Positions 52,789 to 53,102 of a stretch of 64,000 nt of DNA are shown here, one piece after another. A program made the translations under genes and the position numbers. The stretch spans positions 115,196,001 to 115,260,000 of the forward strand of contig OX597821.1 in assembly GCA_951406725.2 (NCBI GenBank). Direction: 5' to 3'. The notes under the pieces were generated by a model. The model ran no database searches. It was not told the origin of the DNA and saw nothing but the letters and a program-made list of their open reading frames with translations. The stretch's first letter is position 1. Each line of letters begins with the position of its first letter. Origin of the DNA: Octopus vulgaris (taxonomy: Eukaryota).

Positions 52789-53102
52789 ATATATTAATAA
52801 AAGGAATTCCAACCTTGTCTGATTTTCACGTTTTATTTACAATCTTATAATGATATATTATAAGATAATATATTATAATTGAATAAAAATTGTGAAGCAT
52901 GACTGTCACCACTACTACATGAACCTGAAGATTGCAGAATTTAATGCATGAAAGTACTAGTTCAATCAGAATGAACATTTAACATTCTACTATTTCATTT
53001 TATTTTATTCAATTATAATATATTATCTTATAATATATCATTATAAGATTGTAAATAAAACGTGAAAATCAGACAAGGTTGGAATTCCTTTTATTAATAT
53101 AT
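52789..53102. mobile_element. Palindromic element, ~100-bp apparently perfect arms, near/abutting (TA)n tracts
   Basis: 52789-52888 is the reverse complement of 53003-53102. Confidence 0.92.
52920..52964 (+). ncRNA. Minimal type-I hammerhead ribozyme, intact, in the loop of the palindrome
   Basis: tgaac CTGAAGA t tgca-gaatttaa-tgca t GAAA gtac TA gttca: perfect 5-bp stem I, palindromic stem III AGTACT, predicted cleavage after A52959. Confidence 0.8.

Follow-up and report, generated by a model that had tools for sequence, protein, structure and literature searches.

What builds a perfect palindrome around a ribozyme motif inside an intron? In the 64,000-nt stretch of Octopus vulgaris DNA analysed here (the window; all positions count from its first letter), a 114-nt spacer that carries a hammerhead motif is flanked by the segments 52789-52888 and 53003-53102, which match each other in reverse complement at 100 of 100 nt. 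Folding of the hairpin gave z = -27 compared to 100 shuffles. An initial annotation, made from the letters alone, had correctly described the perfect 100-bp arms and the 114-nt loop. Our analysis indicates that the palindrome very probably represents a single recent insertion of a Penelope-like element (PLE), that is, two truncated copies of one repeat end lying head-to-head in a (TA)n microsatellite.

Structure of the palindrome locus

The locus comprises the following features, given with their strand and the evidence for each:

52707..52762, no strand: (TA)28 microsatellite that probably forms the left half of the target (sequence)
52763..52788, - strand: optional 'tail' of the unit, which at this locus only the inverted copy bears (contig depth, contigs crossing from the arm)
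52789..52888, - strand: left arm, an inverted, 5'-truncated copy of the unit's 3' end (arm identity, contigs)
52885..52888, no strand: 4-nt overlap (microhomology) at the head-to-head junction (contig X5 record 25)
52885..53102, + strand: direct, 5'-truncated, tailless copy of the pLTR-like unit, made up of loop and right arm (contigs)
52920..52964, + strand: minimal type I hammerhead motif (sequence, strict descriptor, two covariance models)
53097..53114, no strand: (TA)9 run that overlaps the arm end and probably forms the right half of the target (sequence)
54920..55047, + strand: next dystrobrevin exon (100% to Octopus sinensis dystrobrevin beta)

This order, from (TA)28 through the tailed inverted copy, the 4-nt overlap and the tailless direct copy to (TA)9, follows from the contig evidence on the repeat unit. 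The overlap was defined by X5 record 25, which matches the direct copy from 52885 onwards with 0 differences, and by the inverted arm, which reaches 52888. Including its tail, the inverted copy spans 52763-52888. The tail measures at least 26 nt; counting the AT run at the right end as target DNA, it would be about 34 nt. On the sense strand of the element it is AC-rich, unstructured and devoid of a stem-loop. In total the insert comprises about 340 bp, has no ORF, and revealed no target site duplication other than TA at its flanks.

Within the 64-kb window the repeat unit occurs once. Its 3' part (52990-53060) forms an imperfect AT-rich hairpin of its own, of which 30-60 nt are missing in several family contigs.

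The repeat family in sequencing contigs

At least half of the sampled sequence words were present in 20 of the 24 listed sequencing runs (9 studies, 4 organism labels), and all of them in none of the 24. We placed the contigs of four of those runs on 52763-53250; X1-X3 are DNA, and X5 is RNA by our guess. Summed contig depth reached 4e5-9e5 in the loop and 8e4-2e5 in the tail, versus 12-54 in the single flank contig (12-45 at 53120-53136). Since summed contig depth is no copy number, the resulting loop to flank ratios (12,659 in X1, 55,982 in X2 and 10,144 in X3) are taken as an order of magnitude only, about 1e4. The flank contigs of X1-X3 belong to another haplotype, as they differ from the window by three substitutions and a 3-nt gap.

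Upstream of 52887, 24, 24 and 23 contigs of X1, X2 and X3, respectively, ran off into a common consensus (30-nt loose ends). Because other copies share this upstream sequence, the copy in the window is 5'-truncated. X5 record 25 (451 nt) consists of 167 unmatched nt, followed by 52885-53002 (0 differences) and then by the reverse complement of 52763-52888 (1 difference). It thus reads loop, arm and tail in one line, with 1 difference in 244 aligned nt. The crossing from arm to tail was seen in X5 records 25 and 26 and in X1 record 1, and tailless copies ending in (TA)n at 52789 were found in 23 contigs in each of the three DNA runs. That is, the unit is a colinear high-copy repeat in which the loop is followed by the right arm and by a tail that measures 26 nt or more; it is not two-armed.

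Two earlier descriptions change accordingly in part. The extent 52789-53102 holds for the arms, but not as the left limit: 52763-52788 is family sequence, so that the feature reaches left to 52763, and the tail had been missed. A very recent event, previously proposed as either insertion or gene conversion, is supported by the near identity of the insert to a family contig, which marks it as young. Gene conversion, in turn, is not needed for the identity of the arms if, as we infer, the inverted copy was made at insertion.

Head-to-head joints elsewhere in the family number six and are weak, several of them lying in the AT-rich internal hairpin or having 21-nt sides. Six 'opposite strand' joints considered as further inversion points were rejected; in the unit's frame they are colinear deletions.

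The hammerhead motif

The motif has a 5-bp stem I (52920-52924/52960-52964), the core CTGAAGA (52925-52931), a 4-bp stem II (52933-52936/52945-52948), GAA (52950-52952) and, as stem III, the 6-nt palindrome AGTACT (52953-52958), followed by A17 (52959), after which cleavage is predicted. From this site to the tail end it is 169 nt. All positions of the type I core (C3, U4, G5, A6, G8, A9, G12, A13, A14, A15.1, U16.1 and H17) are present. The motif had been called an intact hammerhead. The positions of its parts were given correctly; stem II, however, is closed by a U10.1·U11.1 mismatch instead of a G-C pair, and the 6-nt palindrome of stem III is unable to close a loop within one molecule and can form an intermolecular helix only. 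U10.1·U11.1 is known from natural hammerheads and was reported to be tolerated better than any other mismatch (PMC3088659). An alternative parse with a 9-nt stem III was rejected, as it leaves stem I unpaired when read from the sequence.

A strict hammerhead descriptor, composed after the motif was seen, matched once in the window, whereas neither 300 shuffles of the window nor 100,000 of the loop produced a match. Rfam returned no hammerhead family match in the window (E up to 5) or in the loop alone (E up to 10).

Among family copies, four of the 45 nt of the motif vary in at least 4% of contig depth. Stems I-III contain none of these sites, and three of them fall in loop II, which is 8 nt long (p=0.014). 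The fourth is U4C (window 52926), which accounts for 62%, 31% and 25% of the depth in X1, X2 and X3, respectively. Such shares in three DNA runs suggest a large subfamily with a putatively weakened core. U4C is less active in vitro, yet was adequate in vivo for a viroid (PMC3088659). In the contig data, no compensatory changes in the motif were seen among family copies.

The minimal PLE hammerheads described by Cervera and De la Pena (2014, PMC4209133) resemble the octopus motif in being type I with a 5-bp stem I and a palindromic stem III, in being dimer-type and in occurring mostly as solo copies. They have a conserved G10.1-C11.1 pair, which the octopus motif lacks; the latter further differs in its 4-bp stem II and in the large share of copies with U4C.

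Can such a motif cleave? Fold prediction gave stem I a pairing probability of 0.7-0.8 in the isolated motif, but about 0.2 within the 214-nt direct copy, and in the best fold of the whole hairpin stem I was not formed. For two copies, a hammerhead dimer was predicted at -18.6 kcal/mol compared to -12.4 for two monomers, and the best fold overall was a non-hammerhead dimer at -20.4 kcal/mol. In published experiments a single minimal PLE hammerhead did not cleave in vitro and dimers cleaved weakly (PMC4209133; reviewed in PMC6765202). The motif of a PLE from Anolis required protein and was dispensable for insertion in vitro (PMC11167929). We therefore predict that the single-copy motif is inactive. 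In tandem RNA, cutting would require either a dimer or assistance by protein, so that a lone copy is likely silent.

These findings do not support the former proposal of a long duplex capped by a self-cleaving loop as a working unit, given a dimer-type stem III, a stem I that is absent or formed with a probability near 0.2, and the lack of in vitro cleavage by a single minimal PLE hammerhead (PMC4209133).

Comparison with Hydra-type elements

The window contains a broken fragment of a Hydra-type PLE reverse transcriptase (RT) at 36202-36542 (+), 16 kb from the palindrome and unlinked to it. A phmmer search with this fragment gave 97 matches and a word-based protein search gave none. Pfam named none of seven such proteins, and a scan of viral contigs for Hydra-type proteins yielded no locus. 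In total, we assembled 88 Hydra-type ORF loci, 78 kept from 394 metagenome matches and ten from genome contigs. The loci L079-L088 lie in contigs filed under bacterial MAGs and are likely animal host DNA in those bins.

Hammerheads were detected in 67 of the 88 loci (shuffled sets: 0.2 matches per set), and 19 of 54 distinct ORF-adjacent motifs carried U·U. A first covariance model was built from these 19 motifs (covariation 0.73 versus 0.24 when shuffled) and ranked the octopus motif first in the window with 33.9 bits (E 2.4e-8; next 14.5). As the U·U class had been picked after the motif was seen, we built a control model from 28 of the 35 other motifs. Here too, the octopus motif was the top match of the window, scoring 23.4 bits (E 1.6e-4) compared to 14.8 for the runner-up.

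Several features are shared with Hydra-clade PLEs as described by Craig 2021, namely the (TA)n target, U10.1·U11.1 and a hammerhead near the 3' end. Members of that clade are recognised by the RT/EN motifs RWK, DKT and CxCX5C and by the absence of CCHH. According to the same source, 26 of 27 Hydra-clade families have a (TA)n target and 14 of 25 have U·U (PMC8557442). Insertion into (TA)n, found also here, is not diagnostic of this clade, since it is typical of Naiads too (PMC8557442). Compared by eye, Hydra-1_cRog has 14 nt in common with the octopus motif across stem I, core and the start of stem II; the hammerhead of Hydra-1_Obim differs in sequence. In ten U·U-class motifs the distance from cut site to ORF start was 176-214 nt. 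Two loci contained inverted copies: in L081, a small palindrome lies within (TA)n and the extension is confined to its inverted copy; in L083, an inverted copy of 758 bp is 100% identical and the extension is found on the direct copy.

Other features differ. Nucleotide comparison with the 88 loci gave no similarity beyond AT-rich chance matches. Stem III comprises 6 nt in the octopus motif versus 8-9 nt in all 19 U·U motifs, and position 15.2 is G versus C in 54 of 54 ORF-adjacent motifs. Furthermore, the octopus unit lacks a GCTC...GAGC stem-loop that was present in 18 of the 24 Hydra-type 3' ends selected by hand. The octopus form of the hammerhead (U·U stem II, 6-nt stem III, U4C in 25-62% of depth) was not among the forms compared. 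Whether the octopus family belongs to the Hydra clade is, in our judgement, close to a coin toss.

The GCTC...GAGC stem-loop follows the start of the hammerhead core by 70-110 nt in L001, L005, L087 and others. It sits in or just before the tail and is a candidate RT-binding or start signal. Section 11 of the supplement of PMC8557442 does not mention it.

Origin of the palindrome

The locus combines a colinear unit, 5' truncation, a one-sided tail, a 4-nt overlap, (TA)n flanks and a hammerhead motif. An inverted 5'-truncated copy and an optional tail of 30-40 bp constitute a published PLE signature (PMC8557442; PMC3846280). Insertions of EN+ PLEs (Arkhipova 2013, PMC3846280; Craig 2021, PMC8557442) likewise consist of a direct 5'-truncated copy and an adjacent inverted copy in head-to-head orientation, with a short junction overlap, a tail at one end and a hammerhead in the pLTR-like end. 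The octopus insert displays the hammerhead in a pLTR-like end, the truncation with its adjacent inverted copy, and the optional tail on the inverted copy only. It differs in that it measures only about 340 bp, has a demonstrable tail of 26 nt versus the published 30-40, and has no ORF inside or linked. Thus, this kind of insertion is already known, and the palindrome family is a young member of it.

For one PLE examined in vitro, the tail corresponds to the segment that separates two RT start sites within AC-rich sequence (PMC11167929). By such a mechanism, the RT/GIY-YIG protein of an autonomous PLE would nick the microsatellite, and cDNA synthesis would begin at two positions inside the element RNA, yielding the tailed copy from one and the tailless copy from the other. 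The two short products would then be joined head-to-head at the 4-nt overlap, so that the mirror half would be made during integration. Any activity of the hammerhead would belong to tandem RNA of the element, where it may pair as a dimer or be assisted by protein. An alternative route, proposed in PMC3846280, relies on self-priming on an antisense template and would leave an insert indistinguishable from that at 52763-53102.

PLEs make up 6.83% of the O. vulgaris genome, with 190 families, 31 of them recently active (PMC13282606), and the palindrome family may therefore already sit in that repeat library. In the supplements of PMC8557442 and PMC13282606 that were searched, where FASTA line breaks could hide matches, short family motifs were absent save for one 11-nt match in an unrelated context. 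The available part of PMC8967140 does not mention ribozymes, and our literature searches found no published description of the family.

Instead of a PLE itself, an ORF-less hammerhead element, retrozyme-like or a short PLE derivative, might have been moved in trans by a PLE protein, the locus again being one insertion. This would fit the roughly 1e4-fold depth, the absence of a linked ORF, and a stem III and tail unlike those of Hydra-type ends. A search of viral and metagenome contigs with the motif pattern gave 0 matches, and no ORF was linked to the palindrome family. Retrozymes have also been proposed as PLE derivatives (bioRxiv 10.64898/2026.07.22.740005). Like non-LTR retrozymes (PMC7229834), the unit is short, AT-rich and high-copy, with a type I hammerhead and no ORF seen. 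But retrozymes are tandem arrays of 150-450-bp units (PMC7229834), whereas the octopus unit is not tandem: in contigs as long as 451 and 746 nt the unit does not recur, X5 record 25 continuing upstream for 167 nt and X2 record 11 for 600 nt, and none of the 15 of 20 joints listed was a 'go back' (tandem) joint. In addition, its motif is minimal rather than canonical and it has an inverted copy and a tail. We consider this explanation improbable.

Perfect arms, a short insert and TA flanks would also be expected of a MITE or foldback DNA element whose terminal inverted repeats measure 100 bp and which contains a hammerhead by chance, and MITEs are annotated in O. vulgaris (PMC13282606). However, other family copies run upstream of the loop, not into an arm, and one end has an optional tail. 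Fixed terminal inverted repeats common to the family copies were not found, and the motif fits PLE hammerheads in both covariance models. The MITE reading is thereby largely refuted and retains a very slim chance. The colinear high-copy unit with its upstream continuation, optional tail and (TA)n setting instead bears out the initial annotation, which had preferred a ribozyme-bearing retroelement end to a MITE.

That the hairpin and ribozyme form a kept regulatory module that cuts or marks dystrobrevin pre-mRNA is scarcely credible: the motif is sense in the intron and a transcript would form a 100-bp duplex, but the near identity to a family contig points to a young copy, and a minimal motif on its own is predicted not to cleave.

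Host gene and wider context

The dystrobrevin exons lie on the + strand and the insert is sense to them in a 13-kb intron (41932-54919), which agrees with the former placement upstream of exon 54920. Given the weak folding of stem I, the dimer energies and the published inactivity of single motifs, cleavage of dystrobrevin pre-mRNA is unlikely. An RNA hairpin in this transcript is likely a by-product.

Long duplexes are ADAR substrates in cephalopods. One could imagine that a young octopus PLE-type family of some ten thousand copies, which either forms a lineage of its own or lacks an ORF and is mobilised in trans, seeds introns with perfect dsRNA hairpins. These would be novel substrates for RNA editing, and cleavage would be becoming dispensable to the family. 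We offer this scenario tentatively and regard it as rather unlikely.

A family this young and abundant would provide thousands of natural junctions for studying how the inverted copy and the tail of PLEs arise, and its U4C subfamily a natural experiment on the importance of hammerhead cleavage for spread. Such PLE stubs can pass for MITEs in repeat libraries.

The window holds two further elements. A Tc1/mariner-type element at 38364-40002 has terminal inverted repeats of 236 bp (97%) and contains pieces of a split transposase. An older head-to-head pair at 45441-45882 (155 nt, 90% alike) belongs to a different pLTR-like family and contains a degenerate hammerhead on the - strand at 45532, with its mirror near 45775-45822.
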